A stretch of DNA of 64,000 nucleotides, taken from Nitrospirota bacterium. GTDB taxonomy: Bacteria; Nitrospirota; Thermodesulfovibrionia; Thermodesulfovibrionales; Dissulfurispiraceae. Location: positions 640,001-704,000 of the forward strand of contig CAWBMP010000002.1 in the NCBI GenBank assembly GCA_963790025.1, read 5' to 3'. The notes beneath the pieces were generated by a model. It did no database searches. It saw only the letters and a program-made list of their open reading frames with translations, and was not told the DNA's origin. A program made the position numbers and the translations under genes. Positions 5,750-48,896 of this stretch are shown here, piece by piece (positions within the stretch are counted from its first letter, which is position 1; every line of letters starts with the position of its first letter).

Positions 5750-6100
5750 TCAATCGACTTCGAGCCCTAAGTGCAAATGGATAGCCCTCTCCAATTCCTT
5801 CAACCTTTCACGAGATATCGCCCCTGTATATTTAAATAGCCTTTTTTTATCTACCGTCCGTATTTGATTGGCCTTGGCTTTGCTATCGTTATTCAACCCG
5901 CCCTCCCGAGAGGAGATCAGTACCTCAAAGGGATATACTTTATCCACGTTTGAGGTGACAGGCACAACTGTTACAGTGTCAGCATGGGCATCATTGATGT
6001 CATTTGAAACAACTGTATCCGGTCTCGTTTTGCCTATCCTTGAGCCGAGAACCGGGTCAAGTCGTACCATATATATCCCACCTCTTTTGATTTTAGTCAA
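5750..6100 (-). CDS. PemK/MazF family toxin, possibly degenerate
   Basis: LDPVLGSRIGKTRP..VVSND and QIRTVDKKRL motifs. Confidence 0.85.
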   Translation of the reverse strand: MTKIKRGGIYMVRLDPVLGSRIGKTRPDTVVSNDINDAHADTVTVVPVTSNVDKVYPFEVLISSREGGLNNDSKAKANQIRTVDKKRLFKYTGAISRERLKELERAIHLHLGLEVD

Positions 6101-6449: not shown

Positions 6450-7784
6450 TTACTGGTTTCTGCCGACTCCTATCTGGTAATATTCAAATCCGAGTTCGTG
6501 CATTTTTTGTCTGTTGTACTGGTTCCTGCCGTCGAAGATAATTTTATTCCTCAGACGTTTTGCAATTTCGTAGAAATCAGGGCTCCTGAATTCTTTCCAC
6601 TCCGTTATAAGCAACAGGGCATCAGCGCCGGAGAGTGCGTCATATTTGGAATTCACATATTCAATATTTTTAAAATCTTTAAAATAATAATTCTTTGCTA
6701 CCTCTATCGCTTTCGGATCATAGGCCCTCACGCCGGCCCCGAGCTTGGTCAGCTCATTTATTATTGTGGTGCTTGAGGCCTCCCTGGTATCGTCTGTTTC
6801 GGGTTTGAATGAAAGGCCCCATACCGCAAAAGTATAGCCGCTCAAGTCTTTACCGAATCTGCTTATGACCTTTTGCGCCAGCACTTTTTTCTGTCCCTCG
6901 TTAACTGCCTGCACTGCCCTGAGTAATTCCGGGGTATAACCGTTTTCCAGCGCAAGCCTTTCAAGCGCCCTGATATCCTTGGGGAAGCAACTGCCCCCAA
7001 AGCCGCAACCCGGATAAATAAAGCTGTATCCTATCCTGGAGTCGCTCCCTATGCCTACCCTTACTTTGTTGACGTCGGCACCGACCCGCTCGCAGATATT
7101 GGCGATCTCGTTCATAAATGATATCTTTGTAGCAAGCATTGCATTGGCGGCATACTTGGTCATCTCAGCGCTTCTGACGTCCATCGCAATAAGCCGTTCG
7201 TGGTTTTTAGTAAACGGTTCATAAAGCTCTTTTATCTTTTCAAGCGCTCTGGGACTATCTGCACCCACAATCACCCTGTCAGGCCGCATGAAGTCCTCAA
7301 TTGCTGCGCCTTCCTTCAGAAATTCGGGATTGGAGACAACATCGAAGGGAATTTGCGAATTGCGGGCCGTCAATTCCTCGTGGATAATCTCTCTCACTTT
7401 AGCAGCAGTGCCCACAGGAACAGTGGACTTGTCCACAATAACCATATAATGTGACATATTCCTGCCGATATCACGCGCAACCTGCAGTACATACTGGAGA
7501 TCGGCACTGCCGTTCTCGCCCGTTGGAGTCCCAACAGCTATGCAGCATATCTCACTGTTGTCCAGCGCTTCTTTTACGGAGGTCGTAAAGTGCAGTGTGC
7601 CAAGTTTGAAGTTTTCCAGCACCATGGCTTCCAGTCCCGGTTCGTAAATGGGGATAACGCCTTTCCTGAGATTTTCTATTTTAGCTTCATCCACGTCAAC
7701 ACAGATCACATTATTCCCCATCTGCGCCATACAGGTGCCTGTGACCAGTCCCACATAACCCGTGCCGATAATAGAAATCTTCAT
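6450..7784 (-). CDS. ugd: UDP-glucose 6-dehydrogenase
   Basis: [14 protein letters not shown] and [10 protein letters not shown] motifs. Confidence 0.95.
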
Positions 7785-7802
7785 CAGTTACTCCTTAAAA
7801 AC

Positions 7803-7829
7803 CAGGTTAAGGTTAAGGTTAAGGCTAAG
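7803..7829. repeat. Hexamer tandem arm (AAGGTT/AAGGCT), inverted partner of 8221-8247
   Basis: caggttaaggttaaggttaaggctaag. Confidence 0.85.
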
Positions 7830-7843
7830 ACAAAAACCCTTAG

Positions 7844-8209
7844 TCATTTTTTTGATTCCCGTAAAGTTAAGATTATTTTATTAATTTCTTTATAGATGCT
7901 ACATAAGTCATTTTCCATTTCGTTTACCTGTTTTGCATTAATATAGCCTACTCTTTTGCCATATTCCAAATGGCTTTGGGTCTCTGCTAAAGACCCTCTC
8001 GCCATATAATAAAAATTTATTTTGTCTAAGGTATGATTTCTTCCAAATGCTTCCGCAATATTCGCGGATACGCTAAGAGCAGAACGTCTCATTTGTGATG
8101 TAAATCCATAATCTTCATTACGGGGTAAATCTGCCGTAACTTTGTGTACCTTTTCAGCTATCTCCATCGCCTTTTGCCATATCGGCATCTCTTTAAAAGT
8201 TTTAAACAT
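7844..8209 (-). CDS. Four-helix-bundle protein (23S rRNA IVS-protein/Avd-like family), copy 1
   Basis: WQKAM..LPRNEDYGFTSQMRRSALSVSANIAEAFGR..ARGSLAETQSHL. Confidence 0.9.
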   Translation of the reverse strand: MFKTFKEMPIWQKAMEIAEKVHKVTADLPRNEDYGFTSQMRRSALSVSANIAEAFGRNHTLDKINFYYMARGSLAETQSHLEYGKRVGYINAKQVNEMENDLCSIYKEINKIILTLRESKK

Positions 8210-8220
8210 GCTGCAGTTAG

Positions 8221-8247
8221 CTAAACCTAAACCTTAGCCTTAACCTG
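8221..8247. repeat. Hexamer tandem arm, reverse complement of 7803-7829
   Basis: ctaaacctaaaccttagccttaacctg. Confidence 0.85.
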
Positions 8248-8254
8248 CTTTATC

Positions 8255-9676
8255 TTACCTTTCATATTTATCCTCAACTCTCACAATGTCGTCTTCTCCC
8301 ACGTATTCCCCATTCTGCACTTCAATAATTTCCAGATGGACTCTGCCGGGATTTTCAAGTCTGTGCATGGTTGATTTCGGTACATAAACCGATTCATTTT
8401 CATGTATAAGCATTTCTTTATCGCCTACCGTCACTTTGGCAGTGCCTTTTATCACAACCCAATGCTCCGATCGGTGGTAGTGCATCTGGTGGCTCAGTTT
8501 TTCATTCGGATTTACCACTATCCTCTTTATTTTGTAACGAGGGCCGTCCTCAAGAATGGTATAGCTGCCCCACGGCCTGTAGGTTGTGACATGCTCCTCC
8601 ACTTCAGTTCGTGAAGCCTCATGCAGTCTGTTAACGGCTTCTTTTACTTTCTGAGCCTCCCCTTTTCCAGCCACCAGTATGGCATCATCCGTTTCAACAA
8701 TGAGGCAATCCTTAAGCCCTATAGTGGTGATCTGGCGCTTGTTGCCGAGGATAAGCGTCCGCTTTGTGTCGATTGCAAGAACATCGCCCTGCTTCACGTT
8801 GTCGTCTTCATCCTTGTCGAGCACATCGTAGACCGAGTCCCAGGAGCCTATATCATTCCAATACAAGTCGAGAGGCATCACCACGACCTTGTCTGATTTT
8901 TCCATGACCGCATAATCTATTGAAATGTCGGGCATCTGTGCGAAGCCGGACAGCATGTCGTCGAATCCCTGAACCAGCAATCCCTGTATGTCCGGCGCAT
9001 GCCTGGCCATCTCCCCGATCATGGTTTTTATGCTGAAGGCAAACATCCCTGAATTCCAGTAATAGGAGCCGTCAACCAGATAGCTCCGGGCGGTTTCCAT
9101 GTCAGGCTTTTCCACAAATTTTTCGACCGTGTAACAGTCTGCCCCGTGATCCTTGCCTTCACCTTCGCTTTCGCGCCTACTGTTGGTGCCTATACCTATG
9201 CCTTTTCCTGCCTTTATATACCCGTATCCGGATTCGGGTCTGTCAGGCTTTACTCCGAAGGTCACAATATGGCCTTCGCGTGCTATTGTCTCGGCCAGCT
9301 TCATGTATTCTGCAAATTTGTCATCCGGTCGAATAACATGGTCCGAAGGACACATGAATATGACTTCTTCTTCACTGCAGCCGAGCTTTTCCAGGCAGTA
9401 TTTAACACCGAGCGCTGTTGCCGGAGCGGTATTTCTGCCCGCAGGTTCAAATATTAAATGTTTAATATCGGGGATATCGGCTTTCACATAGAACTTATAA
9501 TTCCCGTTAGTGACAATAACAACATCATCTTTAGTCATCACCTTCAGGAGCCTTTCAGCGGTCTGGCGCAGAAGCGATTTATCACCGGTTATCTTTAAGA
9601 ACTGTTTGGGATAGTTTCTTCTCGACAAGGGCCAAAGTCTTGTCCCGCCACCGCCGGCTAATATCAATGCCTTCAT
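8255..9676 (-). CDS. manC: Mannose-1-phosphate guanylyltransferase/mannose-6-phosphate isomerase
   Basis: LAGGGGTRLWPLSR, EPAGRNTAPA, FVEKP; C-terminal cupin RPWG..HYHRSEHW. Confidence 0.95.
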   Translation of the reverse strand: MKALILAGGGGTRLWPLSRRNYPKQFLKITGDKSLLRQTAERLLKVMTKDDVVIVTNGNYKFYVKADIPDIKHLIFEPAGRNTAPATALGVKYCLEKLGCSEEEVIFMCPSDHVIRPDDKFAEYMKLAETIAREGHIVTFGVKPDRPESGYGYIKAGKGIGIGTNSRRESEGEGKDHGADCYTVEKFVEKPDMETARSYLVDGSYYWNSGMFAFSIKTMIGEMARHAPDIQGLLVQGFDDMLSGFAQMPDISIDYAVMEKSDKVVVMPLDLYWNDIGSWDSVYDVLDKDEDDNVKQGDVLAIDTKRTLILGNKRQITTIGLKDCLIVETDDAILVAGKGEAQKVKEAVNRLHEASRTEVEEHVTTYRPWGSYTILEDGPRYKIKRIVVNPNEKLSHQMHYHRSEHWVVIKGTAKVTVGDKEMLIHENESVYVPKSTMHRLENPGRVHLEIIEVQNGEYVGEDDIVRVEDKYER

Positions 9677-9688
9677 AAGACGACACCA

Positions 9689-9715
9689 CAGGCACAGGTA
9701 AAGGTAGAGGTATAG
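9689..9715. repeat. Hexamer tandem arm (RAGGTA), inverted partner of 10110-10178
   Basis: caggcacaggtaaaggtagaggtatag. Confidence 0.8.
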
Positions 9716-9737
9716 ATCAACGCAAAGTTGTAAATCA

Positions 9738-10103
9738 TCATTTCTTTGACCCCCTCAACGCCATCACAATTTTGTTCAAATTATTGTAAATATAAATCAA
9801 ATGCTTTTCTAATTCTTCTGCTTGTTGAGCATCAATATAACCAACTCTCTTGCCGTACTCTAAATGACTTTGAGTCTCTGTTAACGATCCTCTAGCTATG
9901 TAATAAAAGTTTATTTTGTCGGATGTATGATTTCTTCCAAATGCCTCTGCAATATTAGCTGATATGCTAACAGCAGACCTTCTTATTTGTGAAGTAAATC
10001 CGTAATCCTCTTTTCGAGGCAATACTTCAGTAAATTTATACACTGTTTCAGCAATCTCAATAGCGTCTTGCCAGATCGGCATTTCTTTGAAAGTTTTATA
10101 CAC
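9738..10103 (-). CDS. Four-helix-bundle protein (IVS/Avd-like), copy 2
   Basis: Same length (121 aa) as 7844-8209 and about three-quarters identical by manual comparison. Confidence 0.9.
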   Translation of the reverse strand: MYKTFKEMPIWQDAIEIAETVYKFTEVLPRKEDYGFTSQIRRSAVSISANIAEAFGRNHTSDKINFYYIARGSLTETQSHLEYGKRVGYIDAQQAEELEKHLIYIYNNLNKIVMALRGSKK

Positions 10104-10109
10104 TTCCTT

Positions 10110-10178
10110 CTTTGCCTTTACTTTACCTCTACCTCTACCTCTACCTTTACCTTTACCTTTGCCTGAGCCTTTGCCCTG
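10110..10178. repeat. Hexamer tandem arm (TACCTC/TACCTT) overlapping the 3' end of the phosphomannomutase gene
   Basis: ctttacctctacctctacctctacctttacctttacctttgcc; encodes the tail AKAQAKVKVKVEVEVEVK. Confidence 0.9.
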
Positions 10179-11575
10179 TCCAGCTCATCTTCCAGAAATG
10201 CCTTGTATCCGGCAAGGCTCTCTTCGTCCTTTGCTTCGGCCCTCATAACGATAACAGGCTGAGTATTGCTCGTCCGTATGAGTCCCCATCCTTTTTCAAA
10301 TAACACCCTGATTCCGTCAATCAAATTGACATCGATAATCCTGTATGGCGCATTGCCGTTTTCTTTATGGGTAATGAGGTGGGATATCACATTGTCCACA
10401 ACCTCTTTCTTCCTGTCTTCAGCGCACTCATGTCTGATTTCAGGGGTGTATGACATACGGGGAACATCGGAAAGAAGCTCCTTTATGCCCTTCCCCCTTT
10501 TCTTCATGATCTCGACAAGCCTGAAAGTGGTGTATAGTGCGTCATCGTATCCGAAATAGTTGTGAGCGATAAAGATATGCCCGCTGAATTCTCCGGCAAG
10601 AAGAGCGCCCTCTTCCTTCATTTTTTGTTTTATGAGGGAGTGCCCGGTCTTCCACATAATGGGAACACCACCGTGTTTTTCTATTGCATCGAACATTACC
10701 TGAGAGCATTTTACGTCACCTATCACTTTGGCCCCGGAGTTTTTGCTCAATAGTTCCCTGCCCAGGATTATCATGAGCTGGTCTCCCCAAACAATGTTTC
10801 CCTCTCTGTCAACAACGCCGATCCTGTCAGAGTCTCCATCATATCCGACGCCGATATCCGCTCCCGACCGCTTCGTTTCCTGGATCAAATCCTGTAAGTA
10901 TTCGACTACTGTCGGATCAGGGTGGTGATTGGGAAATCTTCCGTCAGGCTCGCAGTAAAGCGGGACCACATCACATCCCATACCACTCAGAATTTCCGGT
11001 GCGACCATGCCGGCGGTGCCGTTTCCTGCATCCACAACTATTTTCACCTTCCTGAACCCTGAATCGTTAAGATATGCAAACTGTTTCAGCATAAATTCTT
11101 TATAGTCGCTTACTATATTGTATTTCTCTATCTGCCCCTCTACCTCTACTTTTATCTCTTCCTCTGCTTTTATTATCTCTTTCAGTCTTTGGATAGCGCT
11201 GCCGTGAATGGTATCTTTCCCCACACTGACCTTAAAGCCGTTATATTCAGGAGGGTTATGACTTCCTGTGACCATGATCCCGCCATCGAGGCCGAGATGA
11301 TAGAGTGAAAAATACTGAACAGGTGTCGGGCAGACCCCTATATCATATACATCGAGGCCCGAGGACACGATTCCTCTCATAAGCCCCGCAGCAAGCTCAT
11401 CGGAGCTTAGCCTCACATCTTTTCCAACACTTACACGTTTTGCCTGAGGTATACATGATTTTACCATTGAGCCAAACGCCTTCCCGATAAGCACTGCCAT
11501 ATCAGCGGTAAGGTCTTTACCTGCTATTCCCCTTATATCATATTCCCTGAAAATCGTATCTGATAACATAGTCAA
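10118..11575 (-). CDS. Phosphomannomutase/phosphoglucomutase (AlgC/ManB type)
   Basis: FREYDIRG, TGSHNP and DGDSDR motifs. Confidence 0.95.
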   Translation of the reverse strand: MTMLSDTIFREYDIRGIAGKDLTADMAVLIGKAFGSMVKSCIPQAKRVSVGKDVRLSSDELAAGLMRGIVSSGLDVYDIGVCPTPVQYFSLYHLGLDGGIMVTGSHNPPEYNGFKVSVGKDTIHGSAIQRLKEIIKAEEEIKVEVEGQIEKYNIVSDYKEFMLKQFAYLNDSGFRKVKIVVDAGNGTAGMVAPEILSGMGCDVVPLYCEPDGRFPNHHPDPTVVEYLQDLIQETKRSGADIGVGYDGDSDRIGVVDREGNIVWGDQLMIILGRELLSKNSGAKVIGDVKCSQVMFDAIEKHGGVPIMWKTGHSLIKQKMKEEGALLAGEFSGHIFIAHNYFGYDDALYTTFRLVEIMKKRGKGIKELLSDVPRMSYTPEIRHECAEDRKKEVVDNVISHLITHKENGNAPYRIIDVNLIDGIRVLFEKGWGLIRTSNTQPVIVMRAEAKDEESLAGYKAFLEDELDRAKAQAKVKVKVEVEVEVK

Positions 11576-12837: not shown

Positions 12838-13329
12838 TTATTTCTTTTTCAGGAGTTCTTTTTCAATCTCAACACGCGCCTGGTACTCTATTGTACTGAG
12901 CAGCACTACAATACGGTCCTTGTCTTTCATCTCCCGCTCAAAGATCCCTATGAATCCTGTGAAAGGGCCCTCGGTTATCTCCACTTTATCACCGACTTTA
13001 ATATCCGGGCTTATGACAATAAGCCCCTCCTCATTCATTCGTGACTTGATAATACTGATTATGTCTTCGCTTACAGGCCAAGGGATCCCTTTATTCCCTA
13101 TAATGCCCCTTACGCCGCGCGCATATTTAATCAAGTGATACTGGCGGAACGGATCGAATTTAGCAAACAGATAGTTGGGGAAAAAAGGCCGGATAACGTG
13201 CTCATACTTACCGCGCACGAGCCTTTTCCTTCGCAGTTTCGGATTGAACACTTCAATCGAAGCACGGGCAAGGTTTTCTTCTGCTCTATCCTCCTGCTTC
13301 GGCTTTGTATAAATAGCATACCAGTTCAT
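12838..13329 (-). CDS. RfaH/UpxY-like NusG-paralogue antiterminator
   Basis: WYAIYTKPKQE, PFFPNYLF (NGN domain); KOW GDKVEITEGPF; first gene of the polysaccharide operon. Confidence 0.85.
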   Translation of the reverse strand: MNWYAIYTKPKQEDRAEENLARASIEVFNPKLRRKRLVRGKYEHVIRPFFPNYLFAKFDPFRQYHLIKYARGVRGIIGNKGIPWPVSEDIISIIKSRMNEEGLIVISPDIKVGDKVEITEGPFTGFIGIFEREMKDKDRIVVLLSTIEYQARVEIEKELLKKK

Positions 13330-13444: not shown

Positions 13445-14983
13445 ATGTTATTCCCGGACTTTAATGAATTCAAGACATTGACCCGCCAGGGCAACCTGAT
13501 TCCCGTCTATAAGGAGATACTCGGGGACATCGAGACACCCGTGAGCGCATTTCTTAAGCTCGGGAAGAAGCCGTCCTTTCTTTTGGAGAGTGTTACGGGC
13601 GGCGAGAAATGGGCCCGATATTCATTCCTCGGCATCGATCCTGCCCTGACCCTCAGATGTACAGGCAAAAAGGTAACTATCCAGGAAAAGAAAAAAACTT
13701 CCCATTTAGAAACCGATGATCCGCTTTCCGTAATAAAGGACATCTTGTCACAGTTTACACCTGTCGAAACAGCCGGTCTGCCTCGGTTCTCCGGCGGTTT
13801 TGTCGGCTATATTGGATATGATGTGGTTAAGTTCTTTGAGCGGCTCGCCGATTCCCCGAAACCGACGTTGGACATGCCTGACATTTTTATGATGCTCACC
13901 GATACAATGCTGATATTCGATAACCTCCGGCAGACCGTCAAGGTCGTGTCAAACGTACATATAAAAGACGGGCAAAAGGCGAAGGACGAAAGGCTAAAGG
14001 AAGAAGATATTGAGAAGGCTTACCTGGACGCAGAAAAGCGGATAGATAAGATAATAAAGAAGTTAGAGGTTGGAGGCAAGAGGTTTGAGGCAAAAAGCAC
14101 AACCTCCAACCTCCAACCTCTAACCTCCAACTCCTCTTCTGTTGATTTCTCTTCCAACTTTACGAAAGAGGGCTTTATGGACGCTGTTGTTAAAGCCAAA
14201 GAATATATAATGGCAGGCGATATATTGCAGGTGGTCCTTTCACAGCGGTTTGAGACAGAGGCCCCTTTCAACCCGTTCGATCTCTACCGTGCTCTCAGGG
14301 TGATTAACCCTTCACCCTATATGTACTACCTCGATACCGGCGATGCGCAGCTTGTCGGCTCTTCACCTGAAATACTCGTCCGGCTGGAAGGCGAAAAAAT
14401 AACGCTCAGGCCCATTGCCGGGACGCGAAAAAGGGGTGACAACGAAGATGCCGACAAGGCGCTTGAGGAAGACCTCAAGAAAGATCCCAAAGAAATGGCG
14501 GAGCATATAATGCTTGTCGATCTGGGAAGGAACGATGTCGGGAGGGTTTCCGAAATAGGCTCGGTCAAAGTGACTGACGTGATGAATGTCGAACGCTACA
14601 GCCATGTGATGCACCTTGTCTCCAACGTTGAGGGGAGGCTCAAAAAAGGACTCGATGCCATTGATGTATTTAAAGCATGCTTTCCCGCCGGCACGGTAAG
14701 TGGTGCTGCAAAGGTAAGGGCCATGGAGATCATAGAGGAGCTGGAGCCTACAAAGCGCGGACCGTATGCCGGCTCGGTCGGGTATTTCAGCTATTCGGGC
14801 AATATGGACATGTGTATTACCATACGAACGCTGATTATAAAAAACGGTAAAATATTTGTTCAGGCGGGAGCAGGCATTGTGGCGGACTCTGCTCCTGAGA
14901 ACGAGTATACCGAGACAGTCAACAAGGCGATGGCGATGATGAAGACCGTGGAGTTTTTTGAAAAAAACTCAGGTAAAGGTTAA
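13445..14983 (+). CDS. trpE: Anthranilate synthase component I
   Basis: LLES, NPSPYM, PIAGT and EHIMLVDLGRND motifs. Confidence 0.95.
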   Translation: MLFPDFNEFKTLTRQGNLIPVYKEILGDIETPVSAFLKLGKKPSFLLESVTGGEKWARYSFLGIDPALTLRCTGKKVTIQEKKKTSHLETDDPLSVIKDILSQFTPVETAGLPRFSGGFVGYIGYDVVKFFERLADSPKPTLDMPDIFMMLTDTMLIFDNLRQTVKVVSNVHIKDGQKAKDERLKEEDIEKAYLDAEKRIDKIIKKLEVGGKRFEAKSTTSNLQPLTSNSSSVDFSSNFTKEGFMDAVVKAKEYIMAGDILQVVLSQRFETEAPFNPFDLYRALRVINPSPYMYYLDTGDAQLVGSSPEILVRLEGEKITLRPIAGTRKRGDNEDADKALEEDLKKDPKEMAEHIMLVDLGRNDVGRVSEIGSVKVTDVMNVERYSHVMHLVSNVEGRLKKGLDAIDVFKACFPAGTVSGAAKVRAMEIIEELEPTKRGPYAGSVGYFSYSGNMDMCITIRTLIIKNGKIFVQAGAGIVADSAPENEYTETVNKAMAMMKTVEFFEKNSGKG

Positions 14984-15079
14984 GGTATAGGTAAAGTTAA
15001 AAAAGGAAGTCCGAGGCAGAGGCAAAAATATAAAGAGATTTTTGGTTTTCCTCTTAACCTCAACCTTTACCTTTACCTG
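14970..15079. repeat. Gene-less inverted hexamer-arm element between trpE and trpG
   Basis: caggtaaaggttaaggtataggtaaag ... cttaacctcaacctttacctttacctg. Confidence 0.85.
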
Positions 15080-25271: not shown

Positions 25272-25559
25272 TTGCCACCCAAGTCAGCACCTAAAAAGAA
25301 TCTATCCGCCATAAAAAAAGCCCGCCAGGATGAAAAGAGGAAACTGCGCGGACAGTCTGTACGGGCGAGCGTAAAGACCCAAACCAAAAAAGTAGAGGCC
25401 CTGCTGTCCAGCAGCAACAAAGAAGAGCTTAACAAGACTTTGAAAGAAGCCATCCGCACTGTCAGCACTGCGGCATCGAAAGGAATAATTCATAAGAATA
25501 CCGCATCCAGAAAGATTTCAAAGCTTGCAAAAAAAGCACACGCAGCAATAAACCAGTAG
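25272..25559 (+). CDS. rpsT: 30S ribosomal protein S20
   Basis: SAIKKARQ..KGIIHKNTASRKIS; TTG start after GGAGG. Confidence 0.95.
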   Translation: MPPKSAPKKNLSAIKKARQDEKRKLRGQSVRASVKTQTKKVEALLSSSNKEELNKTLKEAIRTVSTAASKGIIHKNTASRKISKLAKKAHAAINQ

Positions 25560-25728
25560 GCAGCAAGAAGTAAGCAGTAAGCAGCAAAGTCTGAAAAAAC
25601 ACTGGATTCCCGCCTTCGCGGGAATTACCACACTTTTATAAATCTGTTTTTCTTTTGCTGCATACTGTTTGCTGCCTGCAGGCTGCTTGTTTTCTGTTTT
25701 CTGCTTGCTTCTTGCTGCCTACTGCCTG
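25555..25728. repeat. Inverted heptamer arms enclosing a GGATTCCCGCCTTCGCGGGAAT REP-like hairpin (~25603-25625)
   Basis: agtaggcagcaagaagtaagcag ... ctgcttgcttcttgctgcctact; spans the rpsT and holA stop codons. Confidence 0.8.
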
Positions 25729-26630
25729 CTGGTTTTCTTCAGCAGCTTAACAAGCAGATCTTCTATAACATACCTGTGGGACGTCTTTATCGCAATGTCG
25801 GCCTCATGCAGGAGTCTAATAGTGTCTGCGTGCCCCGTGGCGCCTTTTTCTGAAACGCCCGGCCGATAATCGGGCCCCTGCCGTCCATAATAATAATTCA
25901 GCGCTCCCAGTAGCATTTGCGGCTCCTGAACTTTAGTAACGCTTTCAAATATCCTGAATGCCTCCTTGGCATCTTTTTTCTTCAATGCGTCCAGCAGGTC
26001 AAAGGCATTATACTCGGCCCCGGAATAAATTATGCCCCTGAGGTCGGCAATATCAATTGTGCGGTCGCTGACAATACATGCAAGCTTCTCTATTTCAGCA
26101 GAAAGCATGCCGAGGTCTGTACCGGCCACGGCAATAAGATATTCCACTGCGCCGTCTGTGAGCCTCACCTTCTTCTGGCCCGCCTGCTCCTTTATCCACA
26201 CCGGGAGGTCCCTCTCTTGAATAGTAAGGGCAATTGTCTTCATGCTTCCGGCTGTCTTTGCATCAAAAAGCTTCGGTGCCGCACCAGCGTGGAGCATTAC
26301 CAAAAGCGCTGTACCGGCGGGATCAAGCAGGTAGTCATCGAGCTTTTGTATGTCCTTCCTGGCAAGTTTCTGGATGTTGTTGATAACAACTACCCTCCGC
26401 GCGGATATAAAAGGCAGGGTGTTAAGGATATCCAATATTTGTTCTACCGGAATCGTATCATCAGGCGACTTCATGTCGTACTCGTCGAAATTAAAACCGA
26501 CTGCGTCGCGACACTGCTCTTTTATTAAGGAGAGCGCCTCATAGAGCAAAAAATCCTCCGCGGAGTATAAGAGATATACCGGCGACGGCAGTCCCCTGGA
26601 AAGTTCCTGACGAAATTGCCTGATGCTCAT
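25719..26630 (-). CDS. holA: DNA polymerase III delta subunit
   Basis: PVYLLY, TLPF..RRVVVI and EIEKL; lptE-holA-rpsT synteny. Confidence 0.85.
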   Translation of the reverse strand: MSIRQFRQELSRGLPSPVYLLYSAEDFLLYEALSLIKEQCRDAVGFNFDEYDMKSPDDTIPVEQILDILNTLPFISARRVVVINNIQKLARKDIQKLDDYLLDPAGTALLVMLHAGAAPKLFDAKTAGSMKTIALTIQERDLPVWIKEQAGQKKVRLTDGAVEYLIAVAGTDLGMLSAEIEKLACIVSDRTIDIADLRGIIYSGAEYNAFDLLDALKKKDAKEAFRIFESVTKVQEPQMLLGALNYYYGRQGPDYRPGVSEKGATGHADTIRLLHEADIAIKTSHRYVIEDLLVKLLKKTSRQ

Positions 26631-31619: not shown

Positions 31620-32387
31620 TAAATGGGACGGTTCTATTTTTCCTCATTTCTCTCCTTCTTTGGCCGCCCTTTCCTCCGTATCATTTCTTCAAGCGTAAAT
31701 CTCTTCTGCAGCATCGCCACGAAAGCCTCGTTCCCATACACTGCTTTCCGCTCCATCTCGCCTTTCATAGCTTCTTTTTCGGTAAGCATTCCCTTCACAA
31801 ATTCCCTGTATTTTATCCTCCGCTCCGCCTCGCTCTCCGACAATTACTCATATATTACGTGCTCATCTACTAACAAGTCCTCTCTCCCATGGCCATATGC
31901 CCGGTAGCTGCTCCACCGATACTCCTTCGGATCATCTACCATTTGCGCCCTTACCGGATTAAGCTCCACATAGCTTCCACAGGCAAGCAGATAATTATCT
32001 TTCGATATTATTATGCTCTTGTACCGGTCTTGCCAGAAATGCCCAATATGCCTGTACTTTCCCTTGTAATACTGAGCATAAGAAAGATTGACGCCCTTCA
32101 TGATCTCCGCCAGACTGCCTCCATTTACTACTGTCTCAACCACCAAATGCACGTGATTAGTCATAAGCACATAATGATAAAGCTTGTAGCCATACTTTTC
32201 TTTATACTTAAGCAATATCTCGATATATCTCTCATAATCCCTTTCATATTGAAATATGTTCTGTCGATTGTTTCCTCTCGTCAGAACATGATATATATGC
32301 TCACTCGGAGCTATACGCGCTGTTCTCGGCATTCTAAACTGTCACCGCCACCCTGTTTCTCTCAAAAAAATAGAACCGTCCCATTTA
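31620..32387 (-). mobile_element. RAYT element copy 1, bounded by perfect 22-bp inverted repeats
   Basis: TAAATGGGACGGTTCTATTTTT (31620-31641) and its reverse complement (32366-32387). Confidence 0.85.
31634..32332 (-). CDS. REP-associated tyrosine (Y1/HUH) transposase, split by an in-frame TAA at 31844-31846
   Basis: MPRTAR..YHVLTRGNNRQ, MTNHVHL (HUH), YVELNPVRA, YRWSSY; the 69-aa tail continues in the same frame. Confidence 0.9.
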
Positions 32388-32846: not shown

Positions 32847-33612
32847 TAAATGGGACGGTTCTATTTTTCCTCATTTCTCTCCTTCTTGGGTCGCCCTTTC
32901 CTCCGTATCATTTCTTCAAGCGCAAATCTCTTCTGCAGCATCGCCACGAAAGCCTCGTTCCCATACACTGCTTTCCGCTCCATCTCGCCTTTCATAGCTT
33001 CTTTTTCGGTAAGCATTCCCTTCACAAATTCCCTGTATTTTATCCTCCGCTCCGCCTCGCTCTCCGACAATTACTCATATATTACGTGCTCATCTACTAA
33101 CAAGTCCTCTCTCCCATGGCCATATGCCCGGTAGCTGCTCCACCGATACTCCTTCGGATCATCTACCATTTGCGCCCTTACCGGATTAAGCTCCACATAG
33201 CTTCCACAGGCAAGCAGATAATTATCTTTCGATATTATTATGCTCTTGTACCGGTCTTGCCAGAAATGCCCAATATGCCTGTACTTTCCCTTGTAATACT
33301 GAGCATAAGAAAGATTGACGCCCTTCATGATCTCCGCCAGACTGCCTCCATTTACTACTGTCTCAACCACCAAATGCACGTGATTAGTCATAAGCACATA
33401 ATGATAAAGCTTGTAGCCATACTTTTCTTTATACTTAAGCAATATCTCGATATATCTCTCATAATCCCTTTCATATTGAAATATGTTCTGTCGATTGTTT
33501 CCTCTCGTCAGAACATGATATATATGCTCACTCGGAGCTATACGCGCTGTTCTCGGCATTCTAAACTGTCACCGCCACCCTGTTTCTCTCAAAAAATAGA
33601 ACCGTCCCATTA
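32847..33612 (-). mobile_element. RAYT element copy 2, near-identical to copy 1
   Basis: Same inverted repeats (32847-32868; 33592-33612, one T shorter); only a few substitutions versus copy 1. Confidence 0.85.
32861..33559 (-). CDS. RAYT/Y1 transposase copy 2, same in-frame TAA (33071-33073)
   Basis: The 162-aa part is identical to copy 1. Confidence 0.9.
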
Positions 33613-48814: not shown

Positions 48815-48896
48815 AGTGTCAGTGTTTAGTGTCAGTGTCAGTGTTTAGTGTCAGTGTAATTCCTTTACTGACACTGTCACTGTTCACTGTCACTGA
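48815..48896. repeat. Inverted arms of CAGTGT-type tandem repeats
   Basis: agtgtcagtgtttagtgtcagtgtcagtg ... actgacactgtcactgttcactgtcactg. Confidence 0.85.

Follow-up and report, generated by a model that had tools for sequence, protein, structure and literature searches.

Four-helix-bundle genes enclosed by inverted short-repeat arrays whose period follows the protein lineage

Two repeat-armed genes in a pmm-manC-ugd operon

The window, by which we mean the whole 64,000-nucleotide stretch of DNA that was analysed, carries on its minus strand the gene order pmm > hb2 > manC > hb1 > ugd, which confirmed the proposal of an earlier sequence-only reading that two small cassettes occupy consecutive gaps of this operon. 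The host genes are pmm/pgm (10118-11575), upstream of cassette 2, manC (8255-9676), between the two cassettes, and ugd (6450-7784), downstream of cassette 1. Each cassette holds one minus-strand ORF of 121 amino acids, hb1 (7844-8209; pI 9.2) in cassette 1 and hb2 (9738-10103; GTG start) in cassette 2, and that both are four-helix-bundle genes (PF05635/TIGR02436) enclosed by their own inverted hexamer arms, as had been claimed, was established by the profile scores given below, by the arms themselves, and by the period-6 arrays detected by TRF at 7804-7829, 8221-8246, and 10110-10164.

The arms of cassette 1 (7799-7829 and 8221-8251) are 31 nt long, 84% complementary, and enclose 391 nt, and the paired arms of cassette 2 (9687-9728 and 10120-10161) are 42 nt long, 79% complementary, and also enclose 391 nt. 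On the mRNA side, the upstream arm of cassette 1 (8221-8251) is purine-rich with AGGTTA-type units and starts about 3 nt past the manC stop codon, and the downstream arm (7799-7829) is pyrimidine-rich and ends right before the ugd ribosome-binding site. The upstream arm of cassette 2, which spans 10110-10175 in AGGTAR units, is mostly read as a C-terminal extension of Pmm (AKAQAKVKVKVEVEVEVK), and the downstream arm (9687-9728) lies within a mini-ORF of 22 codons, which overlaps the hb2 stop codon at its start (ATGA) and the manC start codon at its stop (ATGA). The PF05635 gene is the sole ORF between each pair of arms, so that the cassettes were found to contain no transposase of the kind sought for IS, MITE, and REPIN-RAYT systems, as the sequence-only reading had held. 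They are also AT-richer than their surroundings, with a GC content of 34.4% and 34.7% versus 46.7-47.7% in the neighbouring genes and 47.4% in the genome. The claim that the repeat unit differs between the copies and matches within each pair stood in part: own pairs score 16 and 18.5 versus 11 for the cross-pairing of copy 1 with copy 2, but AGGTTA (cassette 1) and AGGTAR (cassette 2) proved to be variants of one consensus, AGRYNR.

Several other features were observed in this region. A NusG/KOW paralogue (12838-13329) heads the polysaccharide operon carrying both cassettes, and a PemK/MazF-like toxin gene lies downstream of ugd in an AT-rich stretch (5750-6100). Hexamer-like runs occur in frame in manC (9150-9210), where the run is a variable loop longer than in same-genus relatives, and in pmm (11137-11173). 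Scans of the region for promoters and terminators gave results at chance level. Contigs assembled from the DNA of sequencing runs cover the stretch in pieces only; a joint in run X3 that skips cassette 1 (28-nt side, with 17 other letters between) was considered as a sign of excision and rejected, because it most likely represents the gene-less hairpin of another organism.

The hb1 and hb2 proteins

Against PF05635, hb1 and hb2 scored 123 and 122 bits (cut-off 33.8), and against TIGR02436, they scored 121 and 120 bits (cut-off 24); they were the only intact members of the family detected in the genome. The AlphaFold model of hb1 has four helices (pLDDT 96) and matches Xcc0516 (TM 0.89), Avd (TM 0.81), and also BT_0352. 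Within the RxxxSxxxNxxE motif given for the family in the accessible text of PMC3936711, S46, N50, and E53 are invariant and R42 is nearly so. The closest solved relatives, PDB 2GSC and 2RLD, have five chains each, by analogy with which we infer that the hb proteins may assemble as pentamers.

The two proteins share 74% amino-acid identity with a dS of about 2.3, which is near saturation. Purifying selection on the protein is shown by a dN/dS of about 0.07-0.16 between close relatives, and hb1 and hb2 are old, conserved paralogues; a recent tandem duplication was rejected on account of the high dS and because hb2 is closer to the gene of a relative (locus L033) than to hb1. The nearest relatives are Nitrospirota records, so that the host probably belongs to this phylum, and the next-nearest, at 66-71% identity, are those of Ignavibacteriota, Geobacter, WOR-3, Clostridia, and KSB1, which points to inter-phylum transfer. 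A search for the family in 50,697 phage records gave no match; 42 plasmid records matched at less than 60% identity, mostly cyanobacterial ones, and viral contigs yielded 5 distant family loci.

The fold of the hb1 model brings in an explanation in which the protein would assist, in the manner of Avd, a reverse transcriptase supplied in trans, with the cassette RNA being copied and inserted and the repeats made or read by the complex. Like the Avd of diversity-generating retroelements (DGRs; PDB 4DWL and 8UB7), hb1 is a basic protein of this fold with solved relatives of five chains, and according to the available part of 10.1101/2023.10.23.563531, the DGR reverse transcriptase depends on Avd. 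Moreover, in 75 of 82 loci, the cassette lies in the same orientation as both of its neighbours, an arrangement that would suit an RNA route as well as a simple need for a promoter. However, the hb protein is 14% identical to Avd, the scores against the Avd equivalog model were 26.7 and 22.7 bits (cut-off 80), a PF00078 search of this genome, which is 98.8% complete, gave no match, and reverse transcriptases are similarly frequent in gene-carrying genomes (19 of 45) and in those without the gene (5 of 16). We regard this explanation as improbable.

Inverted arms and repeat period across the family

The repeat-armed layout is real and widespread. When 110 family loci were collected and 3 at contig edges were left out, an inverted-arm score of at least 12 was obtained for 87 of the remaining 107, as compared with 1 of 188 windows taken from these loci at shifted positions. 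In addition, the arms of a cassette pair better with each other than with foreign hexamer arms (median 18 versus 11; 52 of 67 loci), so that both the enrichment and the within-cassette matching that the sequence-only reading had anticipated were borne out.

The repeat period follows the protein lineage across many phyla. Among relatives with arms, hexamers were found in 47 of 50 at 50% or higher identity to hb1 versus 1 of 24 at less than 40%. On a tree of 127 proteins, the period labels 6, 7, and 8 required 8 changes versus a shuffled mean of 36.5 (0 of 200 shuffles as low), and on a tree of 199 proteins, they required 14 versus 63.7, values to be read with the tree alignments being about 120 columns long, about half of the inner branches of the trees being weakly supported, and near-copies inflating the clustering. 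One clade of 68 proteins (SH-aLRT 90) with about 14 phylum labels comprises 51 hexamer-armed members, 17 unlabelled members, and none with 7- or 8-mers. As an independent check, a metagenome search with an octamer-armed protein was combined with the 5 viral loci to give 85 loci, 73 of them usable: the closest labelled relatives were octamer-armed in 8 of 8 cases, hexamers were found in 0 of 73, and 9-mer arms were present, in a sample that, following two queries overall, is biased to their relatives. Arms of 9 nt were seen at L219 and L227 (L denotes our family loci), and 11-nt repeats flank family genes at L081:809-1172 and L124:167-530. Two loci, L071 and L079, each contain a gene of the hexamer clade together with a heptamer-armed one, indicating that the repeat unit tracks the gene and not the host. 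At L071:2497-2960, the 3' end of a gene is duplicated with a second downstream arm, which suggests tandem duplication of a cassette end.

Over 684 hexamer units, the core AGRYNR is nearly fixed (A 97%, G 96%, R 98%, Y 92%), and it persists across proteins that are about 45-50% identical and come from about 14 phyla. The median stem is 4.6-5.3 units; unit counts vary widely (quartiles 4.3-10.5 in hexamer arms), and a constant arm length of about 32-37 nt fits the data as well as five units. In this genome, 12 of 21 hexamer arms have a C directly in front of the first unit, as compared with only 21 of 89 in the cassette loci, which argues against a general outer-end motif. A decay of units from the outer to the inner end of the arms was looked for and not demonstrated. 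The link between period and lineage suggests a likely mobile cassette, with a protein that probably recognises the repeats on either side of its gene.

Occupancy of the same junctions within the genus

The pmm|manC junction was compared in seven operon copies from six genomes of the same genus, and it was filled by a cassette in one (L033), held a gene-less hairpin in four (L031, L032, L034, and L035), and was without an insert in two (L036 and L037). The last two represent the empty orthologous sites that had been suggested as a check, and filled, gene-less, and empty states at the same junctions within a genus indicate patchy occupancy. At 8 more distant loci in which the gene order is conserved, there is no cassette. 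At manC|ugd, the relatives carry a hexamer hairpin (L033), heptamer hairpins (L031 and L034), an octamer hairpin (L032), an octamer arm at a contig end (L035), or nothing (L037), and other junctions that are filled in relatives are empty in our genome (L132 and L133) or carry another unit (L021). Three of the gene-less pmm|manC loops open with ATGTATA, resembling the start of the gene, and the L034 hairpin seems to retain the context of its stop codon, which suggests deletion of the ORF. A heptamer-clade remnant in this genome (contig C2, 471189-471275), which consists of an upstream arm, 29 codons, and a downstream arm at a site that is filled in L022 and L026, is counted here as a putative deletion intermediate. 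No clear target-site duplication was found when filled and empty junctions were compared by eye between genomes that are only 70-85% identical.

This turnover bears on the explanation that the arms are self-maintaining repeats, kept by slippage and template switching, which travel with the gene and are spread by ordinary recombination and transfer with no recognition by a protein. Slippage preserves the period of a repeat, and linkage together with slippage could preserve the period without any protein. L031 and L035 share one gene-less allele without being sisters, and L032 appears to be chimeric, so that recombination does move these alleles. However, homologous recombination alone does not create the swapping of unrelated 6-, 7-, and 8-mer types at one junction within the genus, and the fixed hexamer core across divergent proteins and phyla also speaks against this explanation, which we judge to be quite unlikely.

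At pmm|manC, the frame of Pmm continues into the upstream arm, and in 6 of 6 arm-bearing junctions, the downstream arm is crossed by an open mini-ORF that ends on the manC start codon; hexamers are frame-neutral and, hence, may permit translation through the arms. In the hairpins of L031, L032, and L035, this mini-ORF was observed to encode a short hydrophobic, signal-peptide-like peptide that stops on the manC start. Such coupling, the purifying selection on the protein, and the NusG/KOW gene at 12838-13329 would be in accordance with domesticated regulators, in which the protein binds the arms and tunes read-through or translational coupling in long operons, such as the NusG-paralogue-led polysaccharide operon here. 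Translation through the downstream arm was rejected as a family-wide rule, however, as coupling was found in 6 of 53 hexamer loci versus 21 of 476 background gaps; of the 6 pmm|manC junctions with arms, 4 lack the gene, and the neighbouring genes of the family are of many kinds. A regulatory role of this type thus seems very improbable.

Gene-less hairpins and 23S rRNA inserts

Throughout the genome, 107 hairpins of this type were detected (68 heptamer, 26 hexamer, and 13 octamer, including a hexamer hit at C2:40711 that is probably outside this family) versus 0 in the shuffled genome, which amounts to dispersed non-coding copies with terminal inverted repeats. The purine arm comes first in 103 of the 107, and the median loop is 34 nt. 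Two of them hold the intact genes, and one further site holds the 29 codons described above; a search of the genome for gene remnants gave this one clear fragment besides hb1 and hb2, and past gene content is therefore not demonstrable for most of the gene-less hairpins. In the window, a gene-less hexamer hairpin of the AGGTAR class, like cassette 2, lies at 14971-15078 between ORFs that we take from their translations to be trpE-like and trpG-like. The trpE-like gene itself contains an in-frame heptamer hairpin (AGAGGTT/CAACCTC; 14058-14131) and a single heptamer run (13971-14000), and further gene-less hairpins were seen at 25554-25731 (AGTAAGC heptamers, with a short GC-rich palindrome in the loop) and 48815-48895 (AGTGTC hexamers). 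Two Y1 transposase matches of equal score lie 1.2 kb apart in the window (31964-32302 and 33191-33529); all 11 such matches in the genome are outside the two cassettes.

In both 23S rRNA genes of this genome, a 109-nt gene-less hexamer hairpin replaces a 6-nt loop (C4:1569986-1570070, L237; C2:711158-711242, L236), in support of the link to 23S intervening sequences (IVSs) made in the sequence-only reading. In relatives of the genus (denoted by G numbers), the same loop carries hexamers (G006 and G002), heptamers (G004), octamers (G003 and the other copy of G004), a degenerate insert (G007), or no insert (G001), and the insert of G002 contains a nested second set (L242). Both this nesting and the recurrent exchange of inserts at given sites suggest that hairpin loops already present serve as targets.

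Pairing of the arms as RNA

The sequence-only reading had proposed an mRNA stem as the reason why the arms are maintained. Its fullest form is that the gene is looped out and the stem is cut by RNase III in the manner of an IVS, segmenting the operon transcript. When folded as mRNA, each cassette is indeed closed by a predicted stem between its two arms (z = -3.5 and -4.9; 0 of 100 shuffles as good), an RNase III gene is present in the genome, and the same type of arm interrupts the 23S rRNA. In addition, the accessible part of PMC4990558 places heptameric repeats of the Coxiella IVS at an RNase III site and next to a start codon. In unit-order shuffling, the heptamer arms gave a weak register signal (28 versus 14; sign p 0.04, Wilcoxon 0.10), and the pairing of hexamer arms was not weakened (23 versus 25); as the repeats pair in several registers, this test is a weak one.

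Other measures spoke against selection on the mRNA strand. Stem mismatches of the G·U and A·C types numbered 193 and 197 in the cassettes and 106 and 123 in the hairpins of this genome, as compared with 19 and 2 in a tRNA control, and among 141 cassettes, the sense strand was more stable in 73 and the antisense strand in 67. The sense strand was more stable in 7 of 7 distinct 23S inserts, which include the native helix. None of the G·U, strand-stability, and unit-order tests revealed selection for pairing of the arms on the mRNA strand. Furthermore, the open frame through the downstream arm at all six arm-bearing pmm|manC junctions means that ribosomes would tend to melt such a stem. In their behaviour, the arms are closer to a pair of inverted arrays of a motif specific to each cassette than to an mRNA stem, and this part of the sequence-only reading was not upheld; the lack of strand bias in pairing favours binding of the arrays by the protein, and maintenance as an mRNA stem is rather unlikely.

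Relation to known systems and a possible mechanism

The cassettes work like an rRNA IVS or a REPIN-type system, yet they belong to neither. They share with the 23S IVS (S23p/23S_rRNA_IVP) the protein family inside complementary termini, which are predicted to form a stem in both cassettes, and gene-less hairpins of their hexamer class are found in the 23S genes of this genome. Unlike rRNA IVSs, both lie within a protein-coding operon and show no sign of selection for RNA pairing, and they are accompanied by about 100 dispersed gene-less copies and by a repeat period tied to the clade. In REP/REPIN-RAYT systems and MITEs, a gene flanked by inverted repeats is accompanied by many gene-less hairpin copies in intergenic gaps. 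The cassettes resemble these systems in their inverted-repeat-flanked gene and many intergenic gene-less hairpins, but their gene has no transposase domain, their arms are tandem arrays of 6-11-nt units, and no clear target duplication was seen in the junctions compared by eye.

Heptamer repeats have been reported without explanation in Xanthomonas and Nostoc (PMC4692102) and, as TAACTGA, in Beggiatoaceae (PMC4679880). According to the available text of these papers, they are likewise short tandem repeats of intergenic regions, which often form inverted pairs and lie near start codons; that text makes no link to a four-helix-bundle gene, and the cassette family also has hexamer, octamer, 9-mer, and 11-mer arms. 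IVP-type genes also occur in rRNA inserts of CPR bacteria (10.1101/2024.02.27.582315, accessible part), and family genes occur inside cas loci, with no mention of arms in the available text (PMC3936711). Our literature search, which covered mainly freely accessible journals and main texts, found no paper on repeat-armed four-helix-bundle cassettes outside rRNA or on a link between period and clade.

We propose, with a probability of about 0.5, that this is a mobile cassette without a transposase, in which an Avd-like ring protein would bind its own repeats and host enzymes would perform the insertion. The IVP/Avd-fold gene is flanked on each side by an array of about five short repeats, with the two arrays inverted relative to each other, and the predicted pentameric product of the gene may bind these arrays with one unit per subunit and bring the cassette ends together, presumably acting on fold-back DNA and not on an mRNA stem. 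Host enzymes would then insert the cassette at gene junctions or hairpin loops, and the gene might later be deleted between the arms, leaving the approximately 100 gene-less hairpins, including the 23S insert. An array-binding ring gains support from the five chains of the solved relatives, the median stem lengths, and the contact of all five Avd protomers with one stem-loop, with flipped-out bases between protomers, as described in the accessible part of 10.1101/2023.10.23.563531. Our analysis identified no enzyme for the insertion.

A broader version of this proposal, which we put forward only tentatively, is that the cassettes might represent a widespread class of mobile units free of transposase and integrase, in which the ring protein and its arrays form a matched code of 6, 7, 8, 9, or 11 nt per subunit and which, by inserting into hairpin loops and gene junctions, would be the common source of rRNA IVSs and of the unexplained short-tandem-repeat hairpins of bacteria. 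This reading would offer one possible source both of rRNA intervening sequences and of the intergenic repeat hairpins that have long been noted in bacteria. It would also provide a common protein family of unclear role with a testable function, in that each clade predicts its own ligand, AGRYNR arrays in the present case, and if movement needs no transposase, it would involve new chemistry.
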